Virus record (IMG/VR): IMGVR_UViG_3300017992_000015 | Location: 21,367-85,366 of that record | Source: a virus | Taxonomy: Duplodnaviria > Heunggongvirae > Uroviricota > Caudoviricetes | DNA: 64,000 bases | Reading direction: 5' to 3' (one strand) | Notes under the pieces: model-generated | Seen by the model: only the letters and a program-made list of their open reading frames with translations | Database searches by the model: none | What the model was told of the DNA's origin: nothing | Shown here: positions 928 through 61,798 of the stretch, one piece after another | How positions within the stretch are numbered: the stretch's first letter is position 1 | Layout of the letters: each line of letters starts with the position of its first letter | Translations under genes and position numbers: made by a program

Positions 928-3900
928 CTAGATATAATCGGGACTAATTCCCAACCGCTCACACTCCTCTTCTGTCAACTTCAAGCCCCATCGCGTGAAC
1001 ACGTCCTGATCCAACCCAAATCGGTAGATCGGACTGTCCGCATACGGAGCTCCGTCTAAGTCACATGCCTGGAAGGACACTTTGTCGACCATGCACTCTG
1101 GCAGGATCTCGTTGTGTACCACGTCCAAGCTGCGACATGGGACCTCCAGCACGATCGCATCGTGGATCTGGAGGACAATCTTGTACCCAAGTTCCTCTTT
1201 ACGAGGATGGTTGTGTAGCCAATATAGCGCCGTCGAAACGGCATCGGCTACCATACTCTGAAACGGAAAATTCAGTGCCTGGCGCTCCAATTCGCCCATC
1301 GCCGCTCGATCAGACGTGCTGATGAATCGACGATACCTACCGAAACAATTTCTAAGCCATCCCGGGTTAGCGACGCGGGCACGGAGTGCCTCTTGCAACG
1401 CTGGAATACCCGGATAGAGCTCGAAGATCGTGTCGATAATGCTTTGCGCTTCCGCAACGGTGATAGGAGCATTTTCTTCCTGGCACTGCCTGGCGCACGC
1501 CTCCGCGGTGCGTCCATAGCCTACGCCGAAGATGATGTTTTTCGCAGCAACGCGCTTGCCCTTCTGCTTGATCGATGCGAGTCCAGCTTTGCTAGCCTCG
1601 CAGTCAAGTTGAAAGGAAGTCACAGCGATATTTGAGTGGATATCATATTGCTGCGGATCGCCATCGGGCAGGTTTGCGCGTAAGCAGTGATCCAACATTT
1701 GCGCATCGCGAGCCATCACCGCCATCCCCATAAGTTCCGCGCCCTTATAGTCTGACTCTACAAGGACGGTAGGTTCGGCATAGCCGGGGTCGGTGTTGCT
1801 GACGATAAATGACCGGATTGGCCAGCGGTATTGGTCACCCAGGATTCTCGAGTAATCGTCTTCGCGACGCTTACTGATATTCTGTAATGGCGGCCTCGCA
1901 CTTGACGCACGTCCAGTTTCCTTCACTTGTTGGAACGAACTTCTCACACGCTGGTCATGGCATATGTACTTAGCGATGCCACCGCCGTAGATCCGTCGGC
2001 CATTGCTGTCGAGTTCGATCTCCGTCGATTTTGCCTTGTACTTAGGCGGACGGAATACGGACTTCAACACTTGGTCGATCAGCCTCACGTCGCGTAGCTG
2101 TAACGCCATTGGGTGTTGTAAACCCAAAATGCCACATGTCTCTTTATCTGTACTCGGCGTGTACTTCTCCTGTTCGCCTCTGGACATCACCCAGCCCCAC
2201 GGCTTACCTTTGCCAGTGGACTTGATGGGCTCCAGGTTGAGCGTCATGGCGCCCGCTGGACGCACGCTGAGCCGCTCTCCTGTGTCCTTGTCACGGCGCG
2301 TAGAGTAGCGCTCGCCGAACAGGAATTCCACACACTGCTGTGAACTTCGAGGGTTGAACGCCGGCCAGTTGATGTCCTCCTGAAGCTTCTTCAGCTTCTG
2401 GGCGCTCACTTCGATGAATTGGTCGGTGAGCTCATCAATGCGTTCGGGGTCGATCTTGACGCCGATCGTGCCCATCTCGTTGAAGGCCGGGAATGCCATC
2501 ATGGACAGATGGAACGGGATCCAGCAGTCGTTGCCGTAGCGATCGCCGTTCAGCAGGTTGCAATGCCTGTCCATCAGCTGACGTGTGTAGGCAGCATCTT
2601 TGCCGCCGTAGGGCAGTAGGACCTCGTCGGGGCACTCTCCGTACCCTTCGAGCTCCTCGTCCTTCATCTTCCGCTCCTTGAGGTACGCCTTCTTCCACTC
2701 GCCCAGCGCAACGTCCCAGCGAGGCGCACCGCACAACCGAGAGGCCATGACTTCCAGCTTGAAGTCACCGGTCTCGTTGTAGGCGTGGTGGGCCAAGCCG
2801 ATGTCGAAGCCGCCTGCGTAGTTACCGCCGCGGATCTCGTCGACCGTGGGCGGTACCTTGAAGCGGTGGGCGATGTTCAGGCCGTTGTGTTCAAGCCACG
2901 GAAGGTCAGCAGCGAAGAAGCTGCCGCCAATCTGGACGTCGTCACGATCGAGCAGCCGGTTAAGGTGATCGATCGCGCGCGAAATGCCTGGTCGAAACGC
3001 AGTACCACCGCCCTGCCCTCGCAGGACGATGACGGCGGCATACTTGCCGGTGTGGCTTACCTGTATCGTACGGAGGTACGACCCCGGCTCGCCGGGATGC
3101 TGGCCGTGCCACTCACCGTCAACTGCTATCTTTTTCAACCCAGGGCGAGAAAGGACGTAGTCAACGTACTCCTTCAACTCCCTTTCCTTGTACATGTATT
3201 GGATCGTGATGTTGTCGTTCTCTGCGCTCGTAAACTCCTCGCCACGGATCAACTGGATGAAGTTCCGCAGGGTGGCTTCGAACGCCGGGTACAACTCCGT
3301 GGTACGCAGCACAGCCGCCGGATGCGTGATGGCCATCACCTTGGAGGTATGCAGGTCATCAGGCTCGCCATACTCTTGCAGCATCTCAGTGCGCTCGACG
3401 TAACGGCCCACCATGGTATTCACTGTGTTGCCCGGGATGACCGCTTTGGTCGCTTCGGCCCCGAGGCACAGGATATAGTCAGGCCGGTACAGCCGGATCT
3501 CCTGGTGCAGCAGCGGAAGACAGTCCTTGATCCACGCCTGCGGCAACGCGCCGCTCTGCGGATTGACGTTCATCCAACGCACCAGGTTACACACGTACCA
3601 ATCATTGAGCTCGGCATCACTCAGACCGAGCGCGGTCAACGTGTCCTTCAGTTGCCGGCCAGACGGGCCGACGAAGTTGCGTCCCTCGCCTATCTCTTCG
3701 AGGCCAGGGTGCTTTCCAACAACCATCACACGCGGTCGTCCCCGCAGCTCCTCGTTCTCGAGGTACTTGGGACCTTCGGCATGATCGCCCCAGAGATGCC
3801 CGGGCAGGATGCGCACCGTCTCGGTACGCCCTTTCACCTTGATGGGCATGTGGAGTTCGTTCGAGTACAGCGCCTTCAGATACAGGCACTGCAGCTTGAA

Positions 3901-4113
3901 TCCGGCTTCGATGCCGCGCTTGTTCTTGCCCGTACCCTCTACGACGTAGGGGTTAGCATCGCCGAGCGCTTTCGCGTGGGCGATGAAGTCCGGGCCAGGC
4001 GGCGGCATGCCGGGAGACACGAGGGGGTACATCGGAAAGCGCCGACTGTACTCGTTGTCCTCGTCGTTGCGGAAAATCGCTTGAAGGTCGTCGAGACCTA
4101 GTTCAGGAATCAT
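928..4113 (-). CDS. DNA polymerase I (family A) with N-terminal family-4 uracil-DNA-glycosylase-like domain and 3'-5' exonuclease domain
   Basis: UDG-4 motif GKHPGLEEIGEGRNFVGPSGRQL near N-term; PolA motif B RVAAKNIIFGVGYG and motif C LQIHDAIVLEV; 1061 aa. Confidence 0.85.
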   Translation of the reverse strand: MIPELGLDDLQAIFRNDEDNEYSRRFPMYPLVSPGMPPPGPDFIAHAKALGDANPYVVEGTGKNKRGIEAGFKLQCLYLKALYSNELHMPIKVKGRTETVRILPGHLWGDHAEGPKYLENEELRGRPRVMVVGKHPGLEEIGEGRNFVGPSGRQLKDTLTALGLSDAELNDWYVCNLVRWMNVNPQSGALPQAWIKDCLPLLHQEIRLYRPDYILCLGAEATKAVIPGNTVNTMVGRYVERTEMLQEYGEPDDLHTSKVMAITHPAAVLRTTELYPAFEATLRNFIQLIRGEEFTSAENDNITIQYMYKERELKEYVDYVLSRPGLKKIAVDGEWHGQHPGEPGSYLRTIQVSHTGKYAAVIVLRGQGGGTAFRPGISRAIDHLNRLLDRDDVQIGGSFFAADLPWLEHNGLNIAHRFKVPPTVDEIRGGNYAGGFDIGLAHHAYNETGDFKLEVMASRLCGAPRWDVALGEWKKAYLKERKMKDEELEGYGECPDEVLLPYGGKDAAYTRQLMDRHCNLLNGDRYGNDCWIPFHLSMMAFPAFNEMGTIGVKIDPERIDELTDQFIEVSAQKLKKLQEDINWPAFNPRSSQQCVEFLFGERYSTRRDKDTGERLSVRPAGAMTLNLEPIKSTGKGKPWGWVMSRGEQEKYTPSTDKETCGILGLQHPMALQLRDVRLIDQVLKSVFRPPKYKAKSTEIELDSNGRRIYGGGIAKYICHDQRVRSSFQQVKETGRASSARPPLQNISKRREDDYSRILGDQYRWPIRSFIVSNTDPGYAEPTVLVESDYKGAELMGMAVMARDAQMLDHCLRANLPDGDPQQYDIHSNIAVTSFQLDCEASKAGLASIKQKGKRVAAKNIIFGVGYGRTAEACARQCQEENAPITVAEAQSIIDTIFELYPGIPALQEALRARVANPGWLRNCFGRYRRFISTSDRAAMGELERQALNFPFQSMVADAVSTALYWLHNHPRKEELGYKIVLQIHDAIVLEVPCRSLDVVHNEILPECMVDKVSFQACDLDGAPYADSPIYRFGLDQDVFTRWGLKLTEEECERLGISPDYI

Positions 4114-5224: not shown

Positions 5225-6876
5225 GATGTGACCTCGTCCCAGTAGTCGTCAGATTCGTTTTGGATGTTGTCGTGGTAGTTCGCAACATCGTCACGCGGCA
5301 CGATCTGTCGTCGGACATGGTCCGGCTCAAACTGGTCCGACACGTCGGTCAGCTTGCAAAACCCGCCGTCTACGCGTACGATCGCCGGAGGCATACCTTC
5401 ACCGTGGCGCGTCTTCGTAGCGACCAGCTGGCAGACATTATGCTGCTTGTCCTTGGTCCCTATGCAGAACGCATACCACGCCATATTGGCGAAGGAGGCA
5501 CACCACTCGGCCTCATTGTGGTTTGGGGCAACCGATGGAGACCTGCCTGTCGCCTGTCCGCGAAGCTGGTGCGGCAGCCATACAGTGCAGTTGAACTCGG
5601 CAGCGACTTGCTCTTTCAGCTCAGCGACCAAGCCGCCCAGCATCACAGCCATGTTGCTGCCGTCGACCTGACGGTTCGTCTCCAGCAGGTGCTTCCGCAC
5701 CATCAGGCCCGCCCAGTCCAGCACCACGGTGCGGATGGGTATGTCGGACTTGCCCTGGATGGCGAGTAACCGTTGCCGTGCCTCCATAACGCCGCCTCCG
5801 CCGCCTTCCTTACCGTCGTGGAAGTCGACGAACTTCATGTACCTGTTGAGCCACCCACGGGCAGCTTGCAGGCGCTCACGTTCGCCCAGCAGCTCACCAG
5901 TGGCGGGCGCTGCACGATACATGGTCTGCTCGTAGCTCTTCAGATTGCCCGTAGTGCTCAGCGGCTCTTGCATGAAGCGCAGCTGGTTCTTCGGGACCTG
6001 CGCCGCACAGGATGCAGCACGGATCTGTAGCATTCGACGGTTATCCTCGTAGCTGATGAAGACCACCAGGCCGGGCTCACCGTCTCCGGTCATCTCGATC
6101 TGGTTCTGGATGCGTGCGATCGACACCGCCATCTGCATGGACAGTGTAGTCTTGCCGCCGCCCGTGGCTCCGATGATGACGTTGACGTCACCCGGCTCGG
6201 AACCGCCTTCCATCGCGCGATCGATAAACGACACGCCAGTCGGCCAGCGTGGCCGCGCTACTTGGTCCCATTCCATCGGTATTGTCTCCTCTTCGTTGAC
6301 ACGTCCGATAGTTTCGATCACCTCGATCTGCTTCTGTGCTGCGAGCACCAGCTTTGGGAGATCGTTGATGTGGCTGTAGCCCGCTCTGGCGACGGCGTCC
6401 TTCAACCTGCGGCCGGGGCCGCGGTCAACCAGGACCTTCCGCAGGATGTCCAGCGCGGCGTCGGGCTCGAACGACGAGATTGGGTTGACGTTCTCGTCGA
6501 AGATCCAGTCCATCACGCCCTCTGCCACCTTGAACACATCGGCGTGCAGGTTTGGCATGGCGTTAAGCTCGTCGATCACTCGGATCCAGATGCTCTGCCG
6601 ATTGGGTAGGCGGTTGTACTTGTCGAAATACTCGTACAACGCCTTCAGGTACACCCGATACGGCAGCTCTTGCGGGAAGCCGAGATGCTCAGGCTCCAGG
6701 TGCTGACGCACAGCATAGTAGACTTCGCGGTCACGAGAAGCGTGCAGCAACAGGAACTCGATCGAGAAGTCGTCGATCGGATTGGGATCGATATCGTCCT
6801 TCTTGGTTTCCTGGAGTTGCCCGGGCTCGTTGACAGGAGCTACCGGCGCTTCCACTTTGACCATAGGGTTCTCCAT
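5221..6876 (-). CDS. DnaB-like replicative DNA helicase (start re-assigned to Met45; track ORF extends to 7008)
   Basis: RecA-fold Walker A VIIGATGGGKTTLSMQMA, Walker B VVLDWAGLM; AAAGGGG SD 5 nt before ATG at 6876; 4-nt overlap with primase. Confidence 0.8.
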   Translation of the reverse strand: MENPMVKVEAPVAPVNEPGQLQETKKDDIDPNPIDDFSIEFLLLHASRDREVYYAVRQHLEPEHLGFPQELPYRVYLKALYEYFDKYNRLPNRQSIWIRVIDELNAMPNLHADVFKVAEGVMDWIFDENVNPISSFEPDAALDILRKVLVDRGPGRRLKDAVARAGYSHINDLPKLVLAAQKQIEVIETIGRVNEEETIPMEWDQVARPRWPTGVSFIDRAMEGGSEPGDVNVIIGATGGGKTTLSMQMAVSIARIQNQIEMTGDGEPGLVVFISYEDNRRMLQIRAASCAAQVPKNQLRFMQEPLSTTGNLKSYEQTMYRAAPATGELLGERERLQAARGWLNRYMKFVDFHDGKEGGGGGVMEARQRLLAIQGKSDIPIRTVVLDWAGLMVRKHLLETNRQVDGSNMAVMLGGLVAELKEQVAAEFNCTVWLPHQLRGQATGRSPSVAPNHNEAEWCASFANMAWYAFCIGTKDKQHNVCQLVATKTRHGEGMPPAIVRVDGGFCKLTDVSDQFEPDHVRRQIVPRDDVANYHDNIQNESDDYWDEVTS

Positions 6877-6887
6877 GATGCCCCTTT

Positions 6888-7601
6888 CTAGAGTTTGAGC
6901 TGCAGTAGTTCTTCGGCTTCGGCTTTCATTTCGGCAGGAATGGTCGCTTCCCACGTACGCGTATACCCGATCGGATCGGACATGAACTGCTGAAAGCCTT
7001 CTTCCCACAAGTCCTTGGCACAGGCGAGCCCCTCGGAAGAGGCCACGCAGTACCGGAACAGCGGCGGGAGATCCAACATTTTATTCATGAGAATAAGTTC
7101 CCAGCGCTCCCTGGTGGGCAGGTGCGGGTACTGTCCCGCGCATTCAGCGCTAGCACACTTGAACTCGAGTTTGGCAGACTCCAACTGCTGTACCAGCATG
7201 CTGTCGGCACGGACGATGTACTGCGTGTACTGCTTCATCGCCTTTTCGGACGTGAGCATGTTCACCAGCGGTCCGTGCTCGAGCGTCTGCAGCTTCTCGC
7301 TGCTCGGCCCGTACTTGAACTGCACGTGGATGAACCGCTCGGCATTCGACCAGCCCGACTGCATGATGAGGCGTGCCAGCCGCGGCCAGCAGTCACCCAG
7401 CTCGCGCGTGTTGAAGTTCGGTAGCTTGACATTCTCCACGCGCATAGCACGCCAGTATGTCTCGCGTTTGTACGCTTGGTAGAGCCGCCTGGCCATGTGA
7501 CCAGCGGGGTTGGTGGAGAACATGTTGCGTTCCGGCAGCGCCTCGTATTCTTCCGGCGGCGGCCGCTGCATACGCAACGAGCTATTTCTGTGTTCCGACA
7601 C
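6888..7601 (-). CDS. Hypothetical protein (237 aa)
   Basis: Long ORF with protein-like composition in replication operon. Confidence 0.45.
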   Translation of the reverse strand: MSEHRNSSLRMQRPPPEEYEALPERNMFSTNPAGHMARRLYQAYKRETYWRAMRVENVKLPNFNTRELGDCWPRLARLIMQSGWSNAERFIHVQFKYGPSSEKLQTLEHGPLVNMLTSEKAMKQYTQYIVRADSMLVQQLESAKLEFKCASAECAGQYPHLPTRERWELILMNKMLDLPPLFRYCVASSEGLACAKDLWEEGFQQFMSDPIGYTRTWEATIPAEMKAEAEELLQLKL

Positions 7602-21207: not shown

Positions 21208-21626
21208 AACTCCTCTCCTTTTGTAAAAATGTGCGTGGGGTGTGCTGTCACGCCAAAGGCTCCACGGGCTACGAATACAGCATTGGAAGAGCATTGTTTT
21301 CCCGACACTTCGATTGTCGTCTCTCAACCTTAACTACGGACTCCGCTGGTACTACCGTAGCAAACTGCATCCCTCTGACTTCACGAACTCTGATTCGCTA
21401 CGGCGACCGAAGCCTTTCGGTAGTACGTGGCCGGTCGTAGCGTCGCATCCGCTGTCGCTTCCCGGTGGTGACACCATGCCCAGTCGAAGCCGCCGATCCG
21501 TTGCCAACGGTCATGCTGCACGGTTATCTTGTGGTGGCCGGGCGGCTAACCCGGTCCAGAGCACTTCCACTCGCCACTCCTTAGCTGATGGCTGCTTCTA
21601 AGCCCACAGCCCCACACGCACATGTA

Positions 21627-49384: not shown

Positions 49385-50095
49385 TCACGTGGCTGGTACG
49401 GTTCCCAGCGCCAAGCGATCACGGCGTGACATCGATTTTTGAACGCACCACTGACAATCGCGGCAGTTACATCCTTCGACCAAACCCTGCGGGCAGGATC
49501 GTAGATACGGCTCTGGCCAGACTACACCACGGTGGTCGCACCAAACAACATCGGCGTACCACGGGATGGTCTCGTCGTCGGACGACCGGAGGTGCGCTAC
49601 GCGTACATACGGTACGTGCGGCGGCGCACCATTACGTGCATGCGTTTCGGCGTCTGTGGACCAGAACATGCTCATGTTTGGCAGCGCAGCTAGCTGTCGC
49701 AGGTGTCTGTACAGCCACGGAATCCGCCAGGAGCGAGTATACGTCCAGAACTTAATGTGCGGCGACGCCTGCACGATCTTACGCCATTTGTTGATGTAAG
49801 CCGCGCTGTAGAAGTCACCCACGGCATGGATGCGAAAGATGCCGGCACGCTTGCGTGCCAACTGCGCGATCATGCAATCGGCGAAGTCTTCGCGCAGTGT
49901 TGCCTTGTAGAAGCGTTCATATGACGCCACGGAATGCGGCTGCGCGCAGCACCCCTTTTTCCCGTAGCACAACTCATCGCAAAGATGCGACCGCCCCGGG
50001 CATGTTTTAGCTCTTGGTAGCGACACGTGGTGGCTGTTGCCGACTGTATCGTTGCGATACTGGATGATTGGCAAAGCCTCAGCAATCATTGCCAT
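49385..50095 (-). CDS. Cys-rich protein, paralogue A of 60634..61329 (TCPGxSxxCxxxCYGKKG motif family)
   Basis: Colinear similarity to 60634..61329: SLP..TCPG.S..C...CYGKKG, GDF...YI.KW, YTRSWRI, SDDE..P.Y.D.V; start at Met15 aligns with paralogue N-terminus and abuts tRNA-Gln. Confidence 0.5.
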   Translation of the reverse strand: MAMIAEALPIIQYRNDTVGNSHHVSLPRAKTCPGRSHLCDELCYGKKGCCAQPHSVASYERFYKATLREDFADCMIAQLARKRAGIFRIHAVGDFYSAAYINKWRKIVQASPHIKFWTYTRSWRIPWLYRHLRQLAALPNMSMFWSTDAETHARNGAPPHVPYVRVAHLRSSDDETIPWYADVVWCDHRGVVWPEPYLRSCPQGLVEGCNCRDCQWCVQKSMSRRDRLALGTVPAT

Positions 50096-50097
50096 AG

Positions 50098-50170
50098 AAG
50101 CCCCGGCAGGACTCGAACCTAGCAATACGGGAACCAAAATCCCGTGTGTTACCGATTACACCACAGGGCT
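50098..50170 (-). tRNA. tRNA-Gln (anticodon TTG)
   Basis: 73-nt cloverleaf: 7-bp acceptor AGCCCTG/CGGGGCT, anticodon stem CGGGA/TCCCG with loop TTTTGGT, T-loop TTCGAGT. Confidence 0.7.
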
Positions 50171-54118: not shown

Positions 54119-54394
54119 CTAGTCTCCGAACTCTTTTCGTATGTCCTCAGGAACCATGTTCCTAAGCTTATTGATTCTGCCCTGGATCGTCCGAATGTGC
54201 AAGGCCTGTTCGGAGGTGACGTTGTCCACCGTCTCGAACTTTGCGATGAGCTGCAGCTCCGTCACGGCTCCGCGGCTCTCGTGGATGAACTGATCCGCAC
54301 GCTGGTCGCCCGGGATGAAGGGCAACATCTCCTCGAGATCCTCCAGTTCCTGGAGCACGAGCTTGCACGTCCTCAGCATCTTGGTGGCCTTCAT
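54119..54394 (-). CDS. Hypothetical protein (91 aa)
   Basis: Well-formed ORF; plus-strand ORF 54032..54427 is its antisense shadow. Confidence 0.5.
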   Translation of the reverse strand: MKATKMLRTCKLVLQELEDLEEMLPFIPGDQRADQFIHESRGAVTELQLIAKFETVDNVTSEQALHIRTIQGRINKLRNMVPEDIRKEFGD

Positions 54395-57192
54395 TCGTCA
54401 CCTCCTATTACCTTTAACCGGTGTTGAGGATTAGAGTTGCAGCGGTCGATCTGCTTGTTCCACCATGACTCTGATATAAACCAGCCCCTTTCATTATCAT
54501 ACTCGCATTCGCCATCCAGTGCATTGGCAGCTTTGAATGCGTCGCTTACCCTGGCCGGATCGGGGGGCATCACACCACGCTTCTCACAGATGCCAGTGAT
54601 AGCAACTCTAGGGATGAAAATGCCTGGCGCACGGTCTTTCGGCGCACACCGCACGATCGTCGCGCCTCGCCCTTTGGTCGTGTCGCCCGGGCGTGCGAAT
54701 CGAATGTATCCGTCACAAATTTGCTCATGCAGCAGGGCTACCAGCTTCTGCGCGGGCTTCTTGGGTAGCTCCGCCACGTTATCTACACGGCTGCCAGCCT
54801 CGTAGATCACCTTGACTGGCCCATGCTCTTGCATCATGGACGCCATGTCGTCGATCACGCGGATCAGGTATTCGTCCGCATGTGATTCCAGTTTGAACTT
54901 GCGCTGGCTGATACGCCTGAGCCACAGAGGCAGCACGCGCGGCAATAACTGCCTCACATGCGCCCCCGGCTCTACGGCCTTGGGTCCGTTTATAAACCGC
55001 CACGAACCAACGAGTGACCAGACGTCGGCGTGCCATTTATCGGTGCACAGGATGGTGTTTGCTTCGTAGCCGCCGTGTGCCATGACGTCCTGGACACGAC
55101 GAGCTTGGTTTTGCATGTTCACCATTAACGGCCAGCGATGCCGGGCTGTGACATCAGTTATCACTCCCAAAGATTTGTCTATGCCCGCCGGCGTCGCAGA
55201 CGCACTACTGTACTCACAACATCCGCACGTTCTTGCAGTCTCTTTCCCGCAGAGCACAGCACCATGACCGATGAGCCCTATACCGGTCACGTGCTGCCCT
55301 ACTGCAGGCGCCAAGATATTCGCTCCGATACAGGCGGCGGTTGCCCACACCAGAGCGTTTGCTGGGCTGTCCTCCAGCAGCGGAGAGAGATCGGGAATCA
55401 CCGCTGTAGGCGCATCCAGATCCTGGCCTGGTGCCCATGCGTCGACAACATGAGCGGGCTCGTCGCACACCTCACCTCCGACGTGCACGGCGAACTTAGG
55501 GAGGCTGAAGCAGCTGTCGCGTGGCTTCCAGCCGAACTTTCCGTCTTCACGGATGACCTCGGGGGTGTGTAGCCCACGAGCAATATCGAAAATGTGCGGT
55601 GCCCATGCTCGCTTGATGACGACCATCTTGCCGAGCTTGGACAGCACCTTCTTCTTGAGCCATGTCCCTGGGTCGCTCTCGATCTTGCTCATGGGCTCAA
55701 CGAATTCCACCTGCTCATTACCATAGATGATCCTCCCCTGATAGTAGGGGTCGGCGTCCTCGTCGTCTTCGATGCAGATGACCTTCTCCACCCTGAGAAT
55801 GGCGTCACAGACACACTCGCCGGTTTTGGCGACGTGCCAGCCATTGCTCATCTCTTCAATGCCCTGGCCCCTGACTGTCGTGTTGTGGAACTGCGTGGCC
55901 GCCTTTCGGTGGCGCTCCAGCAGCTCCTGCACCTCGTCGCAGCAGCCATCCGTGAATTGCATCAACATGTCGGGAGGGATGTCGATGTTTTGCAGCAGCG
56001 TCGCAGCCGCGTCCTCCGGGATTACGCGTAGATGCGCCTCTAGCGCCTCTGCCCAGGGTCGCGCCCGGCGCTGCATGTCTCGCAGCCACATGTGCGGCGG
56101 CCGCCGCCACGTGTATTGCGCAGCAGGGACGATGCTCACAAGCCCATCGGCACGCGCCGCCATGTTGAACAGGTTGGCCGACAGCACCTTGTCCCAGAAG
56201 ATGAATCGTTTGTCCGGTCGGGTACGCCAGAAGTCGTACGTGCGCAGCTCCCATTTACGGGTCTGCCGGCGGACCAGCGCGTTGTACGTGCCCACGATCG
56301 GCAGCGGGAGGTCCGCGTCCTTCATGTGCCGGGCCTGCAGCTTGAGCGCCGTGGCCGGATCGGGGATCACGAACACCTGATTTTTGAAGAGCTGCGCATG
56401 GGACGTCGGGCCGTTCAGCACGTCCGCCATGCACACGCCGATCTCCGCCACAGCTGCGGCAGCCCCGTGCGGCGCCAGCTTGGAGTCGACCAGCCGGAAC
56501 GTGTAGTCTTTGTCTCGCTCGGCGTGGCGGCCGATGAACAGCACACCGGCACAGCGCTCGGGCAGATCGTGGAAGGGCACCACGAGCATATCGTTCCAGC
56601 CCTTGCCGCGGAACATGTTCGCGTGCTCGTTGCGGCCCACAGAGTTCTCTTTGCGCGGACCGGCGTGCGGGTAGAACCCCTGGATGCAGCGGAGCTTGTC
56701 GGCCCCGCCGATGAAGCGCCCCATGCGCTTCCGCCAGTAGGCCCGCTGGTGGTCCTGCGGGAGGCCCATCTGCTGGAGGACGCGCTCGAGCTGGACGTCC
56801 CCGTCGGCCATCAGCCGGCGGCTGTCCTCGCGCAGCCGGCGAATGTGCGTTTGTTCGGCCACGTAGCCCTGCTCGTAGCGCCGGATTGCCTCCTGAGTGA
56901 CGGCGTCCGCCGGGAATGGGAGCCCGGAGGCGACCAATCGCCGGATTGTGTCCTCCAAACTGATCTTCCACGTTTTTGCTGCCAGTTCTATCATATCTCC
57001 AGAGGAATGGCAGTCAGGGCAGTAGTGCCAATTCCCGCCGAACTTGCTATCATTGTAGATAGTCAGGCGGGGTTTCCTGCACATCGGGCAGGGCACCATC
57101 AGCGGGATGGACGTGGAGGCGGCCTTGATTCCTAGCAATGGCAGCACCTGGTGCCATCCGATATGCGCGTTGATCGACCGGCGTCTTAACAT
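54391..57192 (-). CDS. Large (933 aa) protein with N-terminal primase-type CHC2 zinc finger; putative replication-initiation/primase-like protein
   Basis: CPMCRKPRLTIYNDSKFGGNWHYCPDCHSSGDMIELAAK resembles DnaG zinc-binding domain; Walker-A-like GHGAVLCGKET; internal shadow ORFs. Confidence 0.55.
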   Translation of the reverse strand: MLRRRSINAHIGWHQVLPLLGIKAASTSIPLMVPCPMCRKPRLTIYNDSKFGGNWHYCPDCHSSGDMIELAAKTWKISLEDTIRRLVASGLPFPADAVTQEAIRRYEQGYVAEQTHIRRLREDSRRLMADGDVQLERVLQQMGLPQDHQRAYWRKRMGRFIGGADKLRCIQGFYPHAGPRKENSVGRNEHANMFRGKGWNDMLVVPFHDLPERCAGVLFIGRHAERDKDYTFRLVDSKLAPHGAAAAVAEIGVCMADVLNGPTSHAQLFKNQVFVIPDPATALKLQARHMKDADLPLPIVGTYNALVRRQTRKWELRTYDFWRTRPDKRFIFWDKVLSANLFNMAARADGLVSIVPAAQYTWRRPPHMWLRDMQRRARPWAEALEAHLRVIPEDAAATLLQNIDIPPDMLMQFTDGCCDEVQELLERHRKAATQFHNTTVRGQGIEEMSNGWHVAKTGECVCDAILRVEKVICIEDDEDADPYYQGRIIYGNEQVEFVEPMSKIESDPGTWLKKKVLSKLGKMVVIKRAWAPHIFDIARGLHTPEVIREDGKFGWKPRDSCFSLPKFAVHVGGEVCDEPAHVVDAWAPGQDLDAPTAVIPDLSPLLEDSPANALVWATAACIGANILAPAVGQHVTGIGLIGHGAVLCGKETARTCGCCEYSSASATPAGIDKSLGVITDVTARHRWPLMVNMQNQARRVQDVMAHGGYEANTILCTDKWHADVWSLVGSWRFINGPKAVEPGAHVRQLLPRVLPLWLRRISQRKFKLESHADEYLIRVIDDMASMMQEHGPVKVIYEAGSRVDNVAELPKKPAQKLVALLHEQICDGYIRFARPGDTTKGRGATIVRCAPKDRAPGIFIPRVAITGICEKRGVMPPDPARVSDAFKAANALDGECEYDNERGWFISESWWNKQIDRCNSNPQHRLKVIGGDE

Positions 57193-57218
57193 GTAGACCT
57201 CGAAACAGGGAACAAACC

Positions 57219-58436
57219 ATGTCCAGCGTAATGGATCAAACAGAAGACCTCAACGGACAGGAGATTCATCGTATCAACTCCATCTATCCGTTGCCAGCCT
57301 TTGTCAAGTCCGCGAGCCAACGTGACATCTGCGGAGATGACGACGTCGCCCCCCATCAGTACGCCGACCTCTCTCGTCGGCGCTATCCCTGCCATACCGG
57401 CGCAGCCACGGTCATGTCCTCGATCTTCTTCCACGAGAAGCGGGCCGAGATGAGTGTCGGGCAGGCCGATCTGGTCGAGAGCCGTCTGATGCATGCCGCC
57501 CAGTTCCATGGCGTGGCCGATCAGGTGACCGAGATGAAAGAAAAGGTTGCCGCGGCCCGACGCTACGATTCGACTGAACTTCCGGATTCGGATTTCGCGG
57601 TCGTTTTCGATGACGGTCAGGGACAGCGTGAACGGCACTACCCGATGCGCAACATCGGTGAGGTCAAGGCCGCGGCAGATTGGCTCGCCGAGTATCGCGA
57701 CCAGCTTCCGTATGCGGATCGGAACAAGTTCGCGACGAAGATACTCCAGAAACGTGCTGCATTCGGCGCGGACCTGCCGGAGCACATCGACATGCTGGAG
57801 AAAATGGCGGGCCTCGGTGTGTGTTCGGGTAAGCAGGCTGCGGAGATCATCCGCACCCGCATCAAAGCCGCAGGGAATACACACCAGCCGAGCGAGCTGC
57901 AACAGGAGTTGGAAAAGCTCGCCCGGCTGTGTGAGGAATCCTCGGATAGTATCCGGCACTACAGCGTTCTCACAAAGATCGCAGCGGTCGTGGACCAATT
58001 CGATCGTGAGACTGGCCTCAACCGCCGGTATGACAATGTCATCCAGCGACCCGAGGAGCTGTTCGCCGTCACCGAGAAACTTGCTGCCGAACTGTCGGAC
58101 GACCTGGTGGGGTCGCCGCTCTCCGGCAATTATTACAAAAAGGCGGACTTGCAGCGTCTGCCTGTCAACGATCTCGCTGACGCGCTTGGCGATGATTTCA
58201 CAGACGAGGTTGCGCCCGCAGGCGCGTGGGTCGACACCGAGAAGCTGGCCTCTATCGTTCCGACGTTGCCGCGGGGCGACATCGAGCTTTTTGATGAGGT
58301 TGCGGCTGCTTCAGGGGTTGAGCCTTTTGCTGTGAAGTCGGCGTCTTTCGGGCGAGCAATTTCTCCCGACGAGCAAGCGCGGCTCGCCGCGCAGCATAAT
58401 CCTCGTCCGGGGAGCCTCTGGGATGGTGTGAACTAG
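57219..58436 (+). CDS. Hypothetical protein (405 aa), plus strand, divergent from 933-aa gene with ~27-bp spacer
   Basis: Long well-formed acidic ORF; start MSSVMDQTEDL. Confidence 0.5.
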   Translation: MSSVMDQTEDLNGQEIHRINSIYPLPAFVKSASQRDICGDDDVAPHQYADLSRRRYPCHTGAATVMSSIFFHEKRAEMSVGQADLVESRLMHAAQFHGVADQVTEMKEKVAAARRYDSTELPDSDFAVVFDDGQGQRERHYPMRNIGEVKAAADWLAEYRDQLPYADRNKFATKILQKRAAFGADLPEHIDMLEKMAGLGVCSGKQAAEIIRTRIKAAGNTHQPSELQQELEKLARLCEESSDSIRHYSVLTKIAAVVDQFDRETGLNRRYDNVIQRPEELFAVTEKLAAELSDDLVGSPLSGNYYKKADLQRLPVNDLADALGDDFTDEVAPAGAWVDTEKLASIVPTLPRGDIELFDEVAAASGVEPFAVKSASFGRAISPDEQARLAAQHNPRPGSLWDGVN

Positions 58437-58532
58437 TGCACCGATCGTAGAGACCCAATAGAAACCAGCTCGCGACGCCTGACACGATCACGAATACTGC
58501 GACGCACAACTCGAGCGGGGTGAGGGAGGCCA

Positions 58533-58790
58533 TCAGTCCTCCTCATCGTCGTCGAAGTCGTTCCATTCGTCGTCTTCTTCGTCTTCATAGTCGTCGTCGA
58601 AGTCGTCGTCGAAATCGTCGTCTTCGTCTTCATCATCGTCGTCGTAGTCGTCGTCATCGTCGTAGTCGTCGTAGTCGTCGTCGAAGTCTTCGTCTTCGTC
58701 GTCGTACTCGTCACCCCCGCTGCTCTGTAATAGGGGTTCCGGCAACCATTTTTGATGGCGACCCGTTCTCGGAAAGGTTGTTGCTGACAT
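58533..58790 (-). CDS. Hyper-acidic D/E/Y/F-repeat protein or frameshifted C-terminal tail (DNA-mimic candidate)
   Basis: GGDEYDDEDEDFDDDYDDYDDDDDYDDDDEDEDDDFDDDFDDDYEDEEDDEWNDFDDDEED; only Met is at 58790 inside preceding gene; different frame from 58711..59595. Confidence 0.3.
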   Translation of the reverse strand: MSATTFPRTGRHQKWLPEPLLQSSGGDEYDDEDEDFDDDYDDYDDDDDYDDDDEDEDDDFDDDFDDDYEDEEDDEWNDFDDDEED

Positions 58791-59595
58791 TCGTCGTGGA
58801 CTCCTTGTCACCGAACCGTCTGTCCCAGCACCGAGTCGCCAGTTGGATCGTCGTGATGATCGCAGTCCTGGTGGTCGGCGGAAATACGGGGCGGCTAAGC
58901 GGTTTCTCGCAGATGGGACAGCACACCTTTCGCCGTCCCTGAATGATCCTCGTAAACGGTTTCTTATCCGCTTCGAACCAGTGGAACTCCGTGTGGGCAC
59001 ACGTGCGTCCCTCCTGGATGACGAAGTCCCACGGAGGCGGGACCTTCTCCTTCAGCTTCTCCGTGCTGTGCTTGCTCATCAGCAGGTGGGCCAGCTCGGT
59101 GTCGAGCGGGAGCGCCTTCATCTGATGTGCCAGCTGCCACGGGACAGGCTGCATGTTCTGGATCGCCAGCCAGAGACCGACGTGGCGGTTCCAGGTGTCG
59201 AGGTAGTTGCAGAAACTACCGCCGACGAACAACGCGTTGCTACCGCGTTCGACCAGCGCCACGGCAACGCCGCGGGGACTGGAAATCATGTCCTTGGCGT
59301 GGACCTTGAGCATGAACCGGCTGCGCATCTTGCGGGCGCGGCAGCGGGTGAAGCTCTTGGAGTCCGTATCATAGATCATCATGTCGGTCGGCTTCTCGCC
59401 GTCTTCCGGCTTCACGATGTCCATGATCTGACGCCCGCTCGGCACTTCGACCACGTAGTTGACGAACAACTTCGAGTCGATCGCCGCGTGGTTGCGCACC
59501 GAATCAACGGCCTGCTTGCAGTGCTGAATCCAACCAGCCCTACTGGCCTCCGGTTTCACGTGCTCAGCATAGTGAGCAATCGCATCATCGAGCAT
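58711..59595 (-). CDS. Hypothetical protein (294 aa) with C-terminal CCPICEKP zinc-finger-like motif
   Basis: Well-formed ORF; stop lies at the start of the acidic-repeat tract. Confidence 0.5.
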   Translation of the reverse strand: MLDDAIAHYAEHVKPEASRAGWIQHCKQAVDSVRNHAAIDSKLFVNYVVEVPSGRQIMDIVKPEDGEKPTDMMIYDTDSKSFTRCRARKMRSRFMLKVHAKDMISSPRGVAVALVERGSNALFVGGSFCNYLDTWNRHVGLWLAIQNMQPVPWQLAHQMKALPLDTELAHLLMSKHSTEKLKEKVPPPWDFVIQEGRTCAHTEFHWFEADKKPFTRIIQGRRKVCCPICEKPLSRPVFPPTTRTAIITTIQLATRCWDRRFGDKESTTNVSNNLSENGSPSKMVAGTPITEQRG

Positions 59596-59631
59596 AGCAC
59601 AGCTCCTTGTTTGGGCGGATGATCCGCCGGT

Positions 59632-59853
59632 TTATAGGTATGGACATAACAATGCCCAGACCAAAAGAATAGCAAACGTCACGGGCATACATAGCCTCGT
59701 GAGACACACCTTCATCCGTTCCGCGGTCCGAATTCTGCTGAAGTCATCCGAGACCTTCTTGAGCGTCTCCGCTGCGATCGCAACGCTTACGACCAGCAGC
59801 AGCCACAGCGCAATCGAGACCATGCAGATGACGCTGAATACGATCTGCGTCAT
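59632..59853 (-). CDS. Small two-TM membrane protein (73 aa), holin-like topology
   Basis: IVFSVICMVSIALWLLLVVSVAIAA and VTFAILLVWALLCPYL hydrophobic helices. Confidence 0.4.
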   Translation of the reverse strand: MTQIVFSVICMVSIALWLLLVVSVAIAAETLKKVSDDFSRIRTAERMKVCLTRLCMPVTFAILLVWALLCPYL

Positions 59854-60641
59854 TCCGAAGTTCCTTCCGTTCGTTCGATGTTGACCTTGCGAAACTTACG
59901 ATTCTCCGCTGGCGTTTGATTTTCGGCGAGCCGGCCGGGCCGACCACCGAGCGCCAGTCGCGCCTCGTCAGATAGCTTCTGGCGTAGTAGCCATTCACGC
60001 ATCTTTTTCCATGTGCCTTTCGGCATCTGTTCACACGCATCCCGCAGCGCCCATAGATGACCGTCGTCCATCCACGTGTAATCCGTGATGAGCGGCTGGA
60101 ACATCGCGTTGATGATCCTGCGGAAGTCATTCGGCGTCTTGGCGTACGGCGTCAAGCCCGTAAGCTGTACGTTCATGAACATTTTGACATCCCAACTGAT
60201 GTCCTTGTGGTTGTTACGCACGGCGTCGAGCCAGTCGTTGGAGTGCTCGCCGTTGCGGGGTTGCAATTTCGTGTACCGCCAGGCGGTCGTCACACGATTG
60301 CCGTACCACCGGCCGATTATGTTGTTATCTTTTACTCGGCCGGACAGTGTTCCCGGATCTGCTGTGAGTAGCATCAACGCGCCGCCCATATTGAAAGGGC
60401 CGCGCCACGCATCGGCGATGATGTCGTGGCGCCAAAAGGCGGCGCCGTTGATGTACTCTTTCTTTTCCGGTGAGATAGCGATTATGCTTCCGAGATAGGG
60501 CCGGATCGGGAAGGAGCCGCTGGTCTGTGCCCAGCGTTGGAGGGTATTTTCTGCGACCCATCCTTCGACGTTACCGAAGTAATCACCGATATGCTCTTCC
60601 CAATGCGGCTCCTTTCGGAGGTCGCGTGGTCTTCTAGGCAT
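59850..60641 (-). CDS. Hypothetical Trp-rich protein (263 aa)
   Basis: ATGA overlap with downstream membrane protein. Confidence 0.5.
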   Translation of the reverse strand: MPRRPRDLRKEPHWEEHIGDYFGNVEGWVAENTLQRWAQTSGSFPIRPYLGSIIAISPEKKEYINGAAFWRHDIIADAWRGPFNMGGALMLLTADPGTLSGRVKDNNIIGRWYGNRVTTAWRYTKLQPRNGEHSNDWLDAVRNNHKDISWDVKMFMNVQLTGLTPYAKTPNDFRRIINAMFQPLITDYTWMDDGHLWALRDACEQMPKGTWKKMREWLLRQKLSDEARLALGGRPGRLAENQTPAENRKFRKVNIERTEGTSE

Positions 60642-61329
60642 TCACCTTTTTCCGGGTGCGAGCCTTGCGGGGCACCTTCTTGTCAGTCTGACAAATGCGG
60701 CAGCGCTCGCACGTCATTTTTCTTTTGTACGTCATCCCGTTCTCGCCAGGGCACACGAGGCGGCCGCTGGTGAACCGTACGAGCGTGGCGCGCTTGGTAC
60801 GCAGCACCATGTCGCAGTAGGCAGGGACAACTTCGTCGTCAGAGGTCTGCATGTAGGCGGACCGAACGCCCTTGAGGGTCGGCGGCTTGCCGTCGATCTC
60901 GTGGGTGTCCTCATCAACCGACCACCACAACTTGGTGTTGGGCAGCGCGTTGAAATCGGTCAGTGCGGGCATCAATCGCTTGATGCGCCAGGACCGGGTG
61001 TACGCGTAGAACGTCACGTCCGGGCACTGTTCGGCAACGGCAATCCACTTGCGGATGTATGGGGCGTCAAAGAAGTCGCCCGTGACGTGGATCCGCAGCG
61101 TCTTGACGTTCTTCCGCTGGATTTCATCCACCATCTTGCTTACGAAATTGTCCTTCTTCACCGCCTTGTGGTTCGCAGCGTGGCTGCTCTTCACGTTGGA
61201 GCGGCGGAAGTGACCTTTCTTTCCGTAGCAGTTTGCAGCACACACTTCTGTCTCACCAGGGCAAGTGATGCACGGTGGGAGACTGAATGTATGAATGTTA
61301 CCCAGTTTAGAGTTACCGGGCTGAAGCAC
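60634..61329 (-). CDS. Cys-rich protein, paralogue B of 49385..50095 (CITCPGETEVCAANCYGKKG)
   Basis: Shares motif set with paralogue A plus C-terminal CPGENG...CERCRIC cluster. Confidence 0.5.
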   Translation of the reverse strand: MLQPGNSKLGNIHTFSLPPCITCPGETEVCAANCYGKKGHFRRSNVKSSHAANHKAVKKDNFVSKMVDEIQRKNVKTLRIHVTGDFFDAPYIRKWIAVAEQCPDVTFYAYTRSWRIKRLMPALTDFNALPNTKLWWSVDEDTHEIDGKPPTLKGVRSAYMQTSDDEVVPAYCDMVLRTKRATLVRFTSGRLVCPGENGMTYKRKMTCERCRICQTDKKVPRKARTRKKVNA

Positions 61330-61417
61330 GAAGCACCTCCTGTCGATTGACGGAAGGACCGCCGTCTGGCCAACGTGGCTTCGACAGCAGGTCCAAATTC
61401 AATCGACTGGGTTGGTG

Positions 61418-61798
61418 CTAGTCTTCGGTATTGCGGAAACGAATGCCCCGCCATTGACGCTCGTCACTGAGATCCAGCTGCGTGCTGCGCGGCGCGTTGG
61501 CCGTGCCCGGCTGGAACTGATCGACAGCGGTCATGTCGTCGTAGTCGCTGGCCTCCGATGCCTTGCAGTGTTTGCACGTGCGGGGCTTGGGATTACCAGC
61601 AGAATCCTTCTTGAGGATCGCCCACCCGCGACAGTCGCAGGAGAGTGTGTCATCGGTCCACAGGATCGTCAGGTACTTGGTCAGCCCGTTCGACGATGTG
61701 GACTCTTTGCATTTGGATGGGTACGCCGTACTTCCGTCGGAGCCGTGCTTGACCCCGTTCTTGAAGGTGTACTTCACCGCACTACTGCGTGTCGGCAT
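61418..61798 (-). CDS. Hypothetical zinc-binding-like protein (track ORF 61418..61954 includes Lys-rich N-terminal extension of uncertain reality)
   Basis: CDCRGW...CKHCK; C-terminus ...RQWRGIRFRNTED; Lys-rich frame overlaps acidic tail of 61782..62258. Confidence 0.4.
   Translation of the reverse strand: MPTRSSAVKYTFKNGVKHGSDGSTAYPSKCKESTSSNGLTKYLTILWTDDTLSCDCRGWAILKKDSAGNPKPRTCKHCKASEASDYDDMTAVDQFQPGTANAPRSTQLDLSDERQWRGIRFRNTED

Follow-up and report, generated by a model that had tools for sequence, protein, structure and literature searches.

DNA mimics are a recognised broad-spectrum anti-defence class of phage proteins (bioRxiv 10.1101/2025.06.06.658234), and the hyper-acidic small gene described here invites comparison with them and with other acidic proteins of similar composition. 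The gene lies at 58533..58790 on the minus strand of a 64,000-nucleotide stretch of the Caudoviricetes record IMGVR_UViG_3300017992_000015 (IMG/VR; positions 21,367 to 85,366 of that record), which was analysed as a whole and is referred to below as the window. Its closest documented parallel is the SPO1 Gp44 middle domain. Residues 56-122 of Gp44 are 57% Asp/Glu, have no basic residues and are disordered by nuclear magnetic resonance, and this acidic domain binds the beta and beta' subunits of RNA polymerase and has been proposed to be a single-stranded-DNA mimic (PMC8208478). Ocr (T7 gp0.3) and ArdA, both small and very acidic, are encoded by mobile elements and compete with DNA for the enzymes that bind it (PMC3439906, PMC2731889). 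T7 gp5.9 is a very small acidic DNA mimic that acts against the host complexes RecBCD and MukBEF (PMC9836394, PMC7617805); it is folded, and its structure was solved in complex with RecBCD (PMC9836394). SSB-type tails, which are disordered, attach to partner proteins at basic or hydrophobic patches (PMC7145534, PMC12339929).

The comparison with these systems concerns the following features of the window.

58533..58790, minus strand: hyper-acidic small gene, from ATG 58790..58788 to TGA 58535..58533; 85 residues, MSATTFPRTGRHQKWLPEPLLQSSGG followed by the tract
58536..58712, minus strand: hyper-acidic tract, 59 consecutive residues, DEYDDEDEDFDDDYDDYDDDDDYDDDDEDEDDDFDDDFDDDYEDEEDDEWNDFDDDEED
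58801..58806, minus strand: Shine-Dalgarno sequence AAGGAG, 10 nucleotides upstream of the ATG, read as Lys-Glu codons in the frame of the 294-residue gene
58711..59595, minus strand: 294-residue gene, whose last 80 nucleotides overlap the start of the acidic gene

Like the acidic domain of Gp44, the acidic region of the window protein is dominated by Asp and Glu, lacks basic residues and is unstructured, in its case by prediction: the tract exceeds 50% Asp/Glu with no basic residue and no predicted structure. Gp44, however, is a 27-kDa protein with three domains, among them the acidic one and a folded, DNA-binding N-terminal one, whereas here the tract makes up nearly the whole 85-residue protein, is Asp-dominated and punctuated by aromatic residues, and no sequence relationship between the two was detected. 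Ocr and ArdA fold as dimers and place their carboxylates in a B-DNA geometry, in contrast to a chain without predicted structure. Ocr, an inhibitor of type I restriction-modification enzymes, is a helical dimer that resembles bent B-form DNA in shape and charge, and it has 34 acidic residues among 116 compared with 49 among 85 in the window protein. An earlier note on this DNA, made from the sequence alone, had read the tract as a possible DNA-mimic protein of the Ocr/ArdA type. The gene structure supports a stand-alone acidic protein, but its sequence matched neither Ocr nor ArdA nor any other family; for Ocr (PF08684) there was no Pfam, PHROG or PDB sequence match, and for ArdA (PF07275) no Pfam, NCBIfam or PADLOC match. 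gp5.9 is a dimer of about 52 residues per chain; it has no sequence similarity to the window protein and is without a repeat tract.

Runs of Asp with Phe are also a point of likeness to SSB-type tails, and the tip of E. coli SSB reads MDFDDDIPF. The resemblance, which the earlier note had also raised, extends to composition and stops there, since SSB-type tails are tethered to an OB-fold protein and need a C-terminal hydrophobic residue, whereas the window tract is free-standing, about 60 residues long, and has neither an OB fold nor a hydrophobic tip at its C terminus. The tract is a separate gene, fused to the 294-residue protein in no relative. The acidic proteins of five relatives end in Asp, Glu or, in L018, Leu (loci on other contigs are given L numbers), and those of L003, L021 and L022 have short non-acidic C-terminal extensions with no tip motif.

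The composition of the tract is extreme. Translation of 58712..58536 on the minus strand confirmed about 60 near-pure Asp/Glu residues punctuated by Tyr, Phe and Trp, as the earlier note had described; the 59 residues comprise 37 Asp, 11 Glu, 5 Tyr, 4 Phe, 1 Trp and 1 Asn, with no basic residues. Asp and Glu together account for 13.1% of residues across the long ORFs (open reading frames) of the window, and against this background the binomial probability of at least 48 Asp/Glu among 59 residues is ~3e-32. An aromatic residue occurs at about every fourth position, and the DNA of the tract is an imperfect 3-nucleotide repeat. The TGA at 58535..58533 directly ends the tract, and the protein terminates in ...NDFDDDEED. 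The full product of 85 residues contains 49 acidic residues and has a net charge of -46, and its acidic region (residues 25-85, 61 residues) is 79% Asp/Glu with no Lys, Arg or His. AlphaFold2 run on the single sequence, which is a weak basis, returned no secondary structure, with a mean predicted local distance difference test score (pLDDT) of 61 and a predicted template modelling score (pTM) of 0.13, a result that speaks, if weakly, against a fold such as that of Ocr. These data establish in part an 85-residue product in which a short non-acidic N terminus precedes the 59-residue acidic/aromatic tract, without predicted secondary structure. Going by the model, the product is probably a disordered polyanion.

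Family searches returned no annotation for the acidic protein. A Pfam-A scan of the 155-residue ORF that contains the whole gene gave no family at E <= 0.01, and PHROGs, PADLOC and NCBIfam gave no match. The PDB sequence search produced only a compositional match, to the acidic/aromatic C terminus of eIF5 (E = 0.046), which we treated as due to chance. In a word-indexed homology search with the 85-residue protein none of 8000 candidates was significant, because the bias correction removes the signal, and profile methods likewise miss the acidic family because of its compositional bias.

The interval 58533..58790 is exactly one ATG-to-stop ORF. According to the earlier note, the tract had no start codon other than a Met inside the preceding gene. 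ATG 58790..58788 is indeed the only ATG near the tract in the acidic frame and sits inside the 294-residue ORF, but it is preceded by AAGGAG (start region ggtgacAAGGAGtccacgacgaATG, ATG at 58790). The ATG of the 294-residue gene also has AAGGAG, 7 nucleotides upstream. An ORF of at least 50 residues follows 20 of the 54 AAGGAG sites in the window, and the background frequency of AGGAG-N6-11-ATG across the loci compared below is 0.24 per kb per strand. The automatic gene caller had chosen TTG 58745 as the start; we rejected this codon, which is without a Shine-Dalgarno sequence and without a counterpart in relatives.

Relatives were found by scanning viral and metagenome contigs with the products of two neighbouring genes that serve as synteny anchors.

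57219..58436, plus strand: convergent 405-residue gene, synteny anchor
54391..57192, minus strand: 933-residue gene with an N-terminal CxxC...CxxC zinc-finger-like motif, second synteny anchor

In related phages these two proteins are 42-66% identical to those of the window, and an acidic/aromatic ORF was present at the syntenic place in eight non-redundant relatives (L003, L005, L012, L017, L018, L021, L022 and L023). There the acidic gene stands tail-to-tail with the 405-residue homologue, either directly or past one or two small genes (L005, L022). The acidic proteins of the relatives have 59-109 residues and net charges of -25 to -51; their tracts are 65-80% Asp/Glu and 8-21% Phe/Tyr/Trp, and the commonest hydrophobic/aromatic spacing in the family is four. 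No hyper-acidic ORF was found in two more distant loci, L010 (40%) and L024 (32%). L021 contains a second acidic ORF (6904..6398, minus strand; 168 residues), which has a coiled-coil-like N-terminal part, a tract of ~55 Asp/Glu-rich residues with Tyr and Phe, and the terminus ...SCCPRRCRCGH. blastn of 57000..61500 against GenBank phages gave no match, and a profile scan of genome contigs with the 405-residue protein found no relative, hence no clue to the host.

The initiation signals of the acidic ORF are conserved across this set. An ATG (GTG in L021) lies shortly upstream of the tract in the acidic frame in all nine non-redundant loci, and AAGGAG or AGGAG stands 6-10 nucleotides before the start in eight of the nine, the window included, L018 having only AAAGG. 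Against the background of 0.24 per kb, chance does not explain an in-frame, correctly placed Shine-Dalgarno sequence in eight loci. Moreover, where the start falls in the upstream gene, two unrelated upstream proteins read the hexamer as Lys-Glu (AAG GAG), a sign that the Shine-Dalgarno sequence itself is under selection. The acidic frame is closed by a stop 2-7 codons before the start in L018, L021, L012 and L023. At the other end, the stop of the acidic gene falls at the end of the tract or within ~19 residues of it in every locus, and overlaps the next start codon in four loci. The tracts of L012 and L023 differ by indels of 12 and 3 nucleotides. A Shine-Dalgarno sequence and start at initiation spacing are thus conserved, and the frame is maintained under divergence. 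Together, these results make it very probable that the minus-strand ORF 58790..58533 is a small gene in its own right, with a Shine-Dalgarno sequence and a start codon to itself.

A codon log-odds table, derived from 18 long ORFs of the window, was also applied to all six frames over the tract. The acidic frame ranked highest (+1.27 bits per codon), followed by the antisense Val-rich frame (+0.57), in which no ORF with a start codon was listed, and the Thr-rich frame (+0.03); the frame of the 294-residue gene scored -1.98 and has six stops within the tract. Synonymous codon usage alone did not discriminate between frames, and for this reason the comparative evidence is decisive.

The acidic gene and the 294-residue gene overlap in different frames over 80 nucleotides (58711..58790). 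Out-of-frame overlaps with the Shine-Dalgarno sequence embedded in the upstream gene are ordinary in densely packed phage genomes. The arrangement at this locus is alike in that the downstream start lies within the 3' end of the upstream gene and the Shine-Dalgarno sequence within upstream coding sequence, but ordinary overlaps are usually of 1-4 nucleotides. As the earlier note had observed, the tract begins where the 294-residue ORF terminates, in another frame. That ORF ends CGG GGG TGA, while the acidic frame, which is +1 to it, reads GGG GGT GAC, and the first acidic codon shares bases with the TGA. The coincidence has a compositional origin. A run of GAY codons broken by T-ending codons produces TGA one base back (six times in the window) and never a stop in the other frame. 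Each NNT-GAN of the acidic frame is a TGA in the frame of the 294-residue ORF, which is why that ORF stops at the edge of the tract. Entry of an upstream gene into the tract can be tolerated only in the stopping frame, because the other frame adds a poly-Thr tail. The onset of the tract at an upstream stop, the shared frame relation and the TGA endings are therefore all consequences of tract composition.

These observations bear directly on the earlier note's suggestion that a frameshift, programmed or caused by an indel, appends the acidic tract to the 294-residue protein. In a programmed +1 shift of the prfB type at CGG GGG UGA C, a hungry UGA-C stop would let tRNA-Gly slip off GGG and onto GGU. 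In the window the acidic frame is indeed +1 to that of the 294-residue gene, with UGA-C after a G-run at the shift point, and in six of six overlapping loci the acidic frame is +1 to an upstream ORF that ends in TGA. This uniform relation, however, follows from composition, there being six stops in that frame and none in the other. The codons preceding the upstream stops of the six overlapping loci (GGG, GGA three times, GCT and GAG) reveal no conserved shift-prone site, and re-pairing in the +1 frame is possible only for the GGG of the window. Three of the nine loci (L003, L018 and L021) have no upstream ORF overlapping the acidic ORF at all, and the upstream genes belong to three different families, being 294-like in the window, L003, L012, L018 and L023, a two-segment membrane protein of ~89 residues in L005, L017 and L022, and GP88-like in L021. 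The Shine-Dalgarno sequence is placed 6-10 nucleotides before the start, which is initiation spacing, as opposed to 3 nucleotides in prfB; in the window, AAGGAG is ~85 nucleotides upstream of the GGG-TGA site and 10 nucleotides upstream of the in-frame ATG. An acidic tail was found on none of the seven homologues of the 294-residue protein, and RNA folding around the junction was not significant (z = -1.0). Neither a conserved shift codon, nor a conserved fusion, nor a stimulatory Shine-Dalgarno sequence ~3 nucleotides upstream is present. With a Shine-Dalgarno sequence and start in nine loci behind a variable upstream gene, the idea of a frameshift-appended tail did not hold up, and we assign it very little probability.

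The accidental version of that idea, an indel that arose in the G5 run during sequencing or assembly and split one gene into two frames, has in its favour that one G fewer in CGGGGGT would join both frames. Yet two contigs from different samples and assemblers, one from ENA (220 kb) and one from Logan, match the window base for base at this place. The exact 294-residue product, C terminus included, occurs on at least 23 contigs, and the exact 70-residue acidic product (as called from TTG 58745) on 10; relatives, too, retain two separate genes. The indel is excluded for practical purposes. The 3-nucleotide repeat probably breaks short-read assemblies, which may be the reason why the acidic product is found on 10 contigs compared with at least 23 for the 294-residue product. 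The 3' end of locus L002 (Logan contig SRR6963491_46758) falls within the acidic tract. A further alternative is that the tract is read in another frame (poly-Thr, from GTG 58714) or is a non-coding simple repeat. The Thr-rich frame is open in every locus, the GTG of the window overlaps the TGA of the 294-residue ORF, and synonymous codon usage favours neither frame. The openness of that frame is nevertheless uninformative, as the GAN/TWY codon make-up cannot give stops there; the frame is accompanied by no conserved Shine-Dalgarno sequence, start or end, and it scores 0.03 against 1.27 for the acidic frame, where start and stop boundaries are conserved and indels are in-frame. This reading is accordingly most improbable. 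The gene structure is ordinary, that of an overlapping small gene with its own start and no recoding, and it carries a caution: of the two frames beside a tract of GAY codons, one is closed and the other kept open, so that composition alone mimics frameshift junctions.

Regarded as an independent gene, the locus encodes a conserved, unannotated Asp/Glu/aromatic protein in a clade of large environmental phages. Judged by composition and by analogy with the systems above, its most likely function may be that of a disordered polyanionic nucleic-acid decoy, a proposal that we make tentatively. In such a mechanism the flexible polyanion would imitate the phosphate backbone of nucleic acids, aromatic side chains would replace bases or act as anchor points, and the decoy would occupy basic nucleic-acid-binding surfaces of host proteins. 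Candidate targets would be restriction and other defence nucleases, RecBCD-like enzymes, nucleoid proteins and RNA polymerase. We count in favour of this proposal that the gene lies among replication and recombination genes. Taken as a whole, an independent gene that encodes a disordered polyanion acting as a decoy is in our view the best explanation, with about an even chance of being right in all its parts.

Several points weigh against that explanation. The decoy mechanism would be founded on composition and analogy, the predicted disorder comes from a single-sequence structure model, and no homology to any DNA mimic or other family was detectable. Ocr, ArdA and gp5.9, the classical mimics, fold into shapes that match DNA geometry, whereas an unfolded chain is predicted for the window protein. 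Its gene occupies no obvious early or leading end of the genome, and the hyper-acidic gene is absent in one relative (L004, L006, L008 and L011, which are the same phage). Small membrane-protein ORFs are adjacent in most loci and could signal a membrane-linked role. With regard to gene structure, ATG 58790 is most likely the start, being preferred over TTG 58745 on the grounds of its Shine-Dalgarno sequence and conservation.

The main alternative to the decoy is that the acidic/aromatic repeats serve the phage's own machinery as a free-standing analogue of an SSB or gp2.5 tail, modelled on the E. coli SSB tip, T7 gp2.5 and T4 gp32. The protein would then bind the phage polymerase, helicase or primase at basic patches, or act as a chaperone for a basic protein of the phage. 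Its DDDF/DDDY units resemble the SSB acidic tip, which recruits at least 17 partner proteins (PMC7145534), and the gp2.5 tail, which binds a basic patch of T7 DNA polymerase (PMC12339929); the setting among replication genes, with several neighbouring products being basic (isoelectric points 8.6-10.2), is also in keeping with such a role. It is made unlikely by the lack of an OB fold, by the fact that none of the acidic proteins ends in the hydrophobic/aromatic tip that defines SSB-type tails, and by the finding that no specific partner gene co-varies with the acidic gene in the loci examined. Less likely again is a role unrelated to nucleic acids, as a cation or polyamine sink or as a soluble partner of the adjacent small membrane proteins. 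Here the evidence is that a small membrane-protein ORF lies immediately upstream or downstream of the acidic gene in most loci, and that in the relative without the acidic gene the membrane protein bears an in-frame tail ...PPELDDDFGRTPYPDDESTT. The membrane ORFs are short and weakly supported, however, the upstream and downstream ones are not demonstrably homologous, and the association may reflect only the dense packing of small genes.

A bolder form of the decoy proposal, which we hold to be unlikely though worth stating, is that free-standing (Asp3-4-aromatic)n polyanions form an unrecognised class of fully disordered anti-host decoys. If so, such a class would titrate many host nucleic-acid-binding or SSB-interacting proteins simultaneously, with carboxylates imitating phosphates and spaced Phe/Tyr/Trp imitating bases or SSB-tip anchors, and the acidic/aromatic ORFs of unrelated phages L026, L027, L035 and L052 would be convergent members of it. 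These ORFs came from an exact search of IMG/VR for DNA encoding DDD[FY]DDD[FY]DDD, which matched 40 contigs, several of them giant-virus bins. In the four phages named the matches are small stand-alone acidic ORFs (~50-90 residues), three of which are placed as follows.

L026 1364..1579, minus strand: stand-alone acidic ORF
L027 3884..4246, minus strand: stand-alone acidic ORF
L035 12172..12450, plus strand: stand-alone acidic ORF

The (DDD[FY])n tracts of L042, L043 and L058 belong to larger proteins, as C-terminal tails in L042 and L043 and, in L058, as an N-terminal segment ahead of a zinc-ribbon-like domain. A Pfam scan of the neighbours in three unrelated stand-alone cases returned PhoH, dCMP deaminase and metallophosphoesterase, with no common theme. 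Acidic/aromatic tracts are thus a recurrent module, found beyond this phage alone. Should the window protein act as a disordered decoy of the nucleic-acid or SSB-tail kind, the folded DNA mimics known so far would gain a minimal, unstructured counterpart, and a simple composition-based way to find more members would suggest itself. The protein is an extreme and probably disordered version of the theme of acidic phage proteins, in an unannotated family.

The upstream 294-residue protein belongs to a small family. A full HMMER scan of 1.84 billion representative proteins gave 8 representatives, the window included, that share a conserved GGSFC..D.WNRH.G core and a C..H...C..C zinc-ribbon-like motif. 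A word-indexed search with the protein matched only itself, a scan of viral contigs found no relative, and Pfam, PHROGs, PADLOC and NCBIfam contained no family for it. The AlphaFold model built on the eight-member alignment had a pTM of 0.67, with residues 264-294 at pLDDT below 50, and gave no Foldseek match in the PDB at E <= 0.001. Conservation relative to its relatives stops near ...CWDRRFGDKES, where the Shine-Dalgarno sequence of the acidic gene lies. From the end of conservation and the low pLDDT we conclude that the overlap falls in a non-conserved, probably disordered tail of the 294-residue protein.

The membrane ORFs around the acidic gene, in the window and in its relatives, are located as follows.

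58252..58533, minus strand: candidate single-pass membrane ORF, 93 residues (MASLTPLELCVAVFVIVSGVASWFLLGLY...), whose ATG overlaps the acidic-gene stop (TGATG)
L003 4622..4763, plus strand: membrane ORF that starts on the acidic-gene stop
L005 3747..4013: two-segment membrane protein upstream of the acidic gene, overlapping the acidic start; likewise in L017 and L022
L004/L006 4309..4752: membrane protein with the in-frame tail given above, in the relative without the hyper-acidic gene

In L003, L012 and L023, too, a short hydrophobic ORF begins on the acidic-gene stop (ATGA or TGATG). The 93-residue ORF of the window has a weak coding signal, was missed by the automatic gene caller, and is antisense to the last 185 nucleotides of the convergent 405-residue gene. 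The upstream two-segment proteins and the in-frame tail in L004/L006 hint that the acidic module is linked to membrane proteins, or that a fusion or fission took place in the past.

Both synteny anchors are conserved at the protein level. The 405-residue protein is 59-63% identical in the aligned loci L003, L004 and L005 and 58-66% in other close loci (tblastn), and the 933-residue protein is 42-47% identical in four viral contigs. The latter had weak matches only, to the Lar-like restriction alleviation family phrog_599 (E = 0.009) and to the N terminus of a PADLOC DRT reverse transcriptase (E = 0.005). Pfam, PHROGs, PADLOC and NCBIfam gave nothing for the 405-residue protein, a 263-residue protein and the small membrane ORFs, and a scan for terminators and promoters between the convergent genes returned nothing notable.

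The acidic gene sits within a tightly packed minus-strand run of small genes that adjoins the 933-residue gene, in a large phage genome (the matching contig has 220 kb). Annotated genes of the window include a DnaB-like helicase, an SbcC-like ATPase, an NAD-dependent ligase and a gpA-type terminase, together with the following.

928..4113, minus strand: family-A DNA polymerase, 1061 residues, with a UDG-superfamily N-terminal domain before the 3'-5' exonuclease and polymerase domains
60634..61329 and 49385..50137, both minus strand: GP88-family paralogues (PF17338), ~11 kb apart

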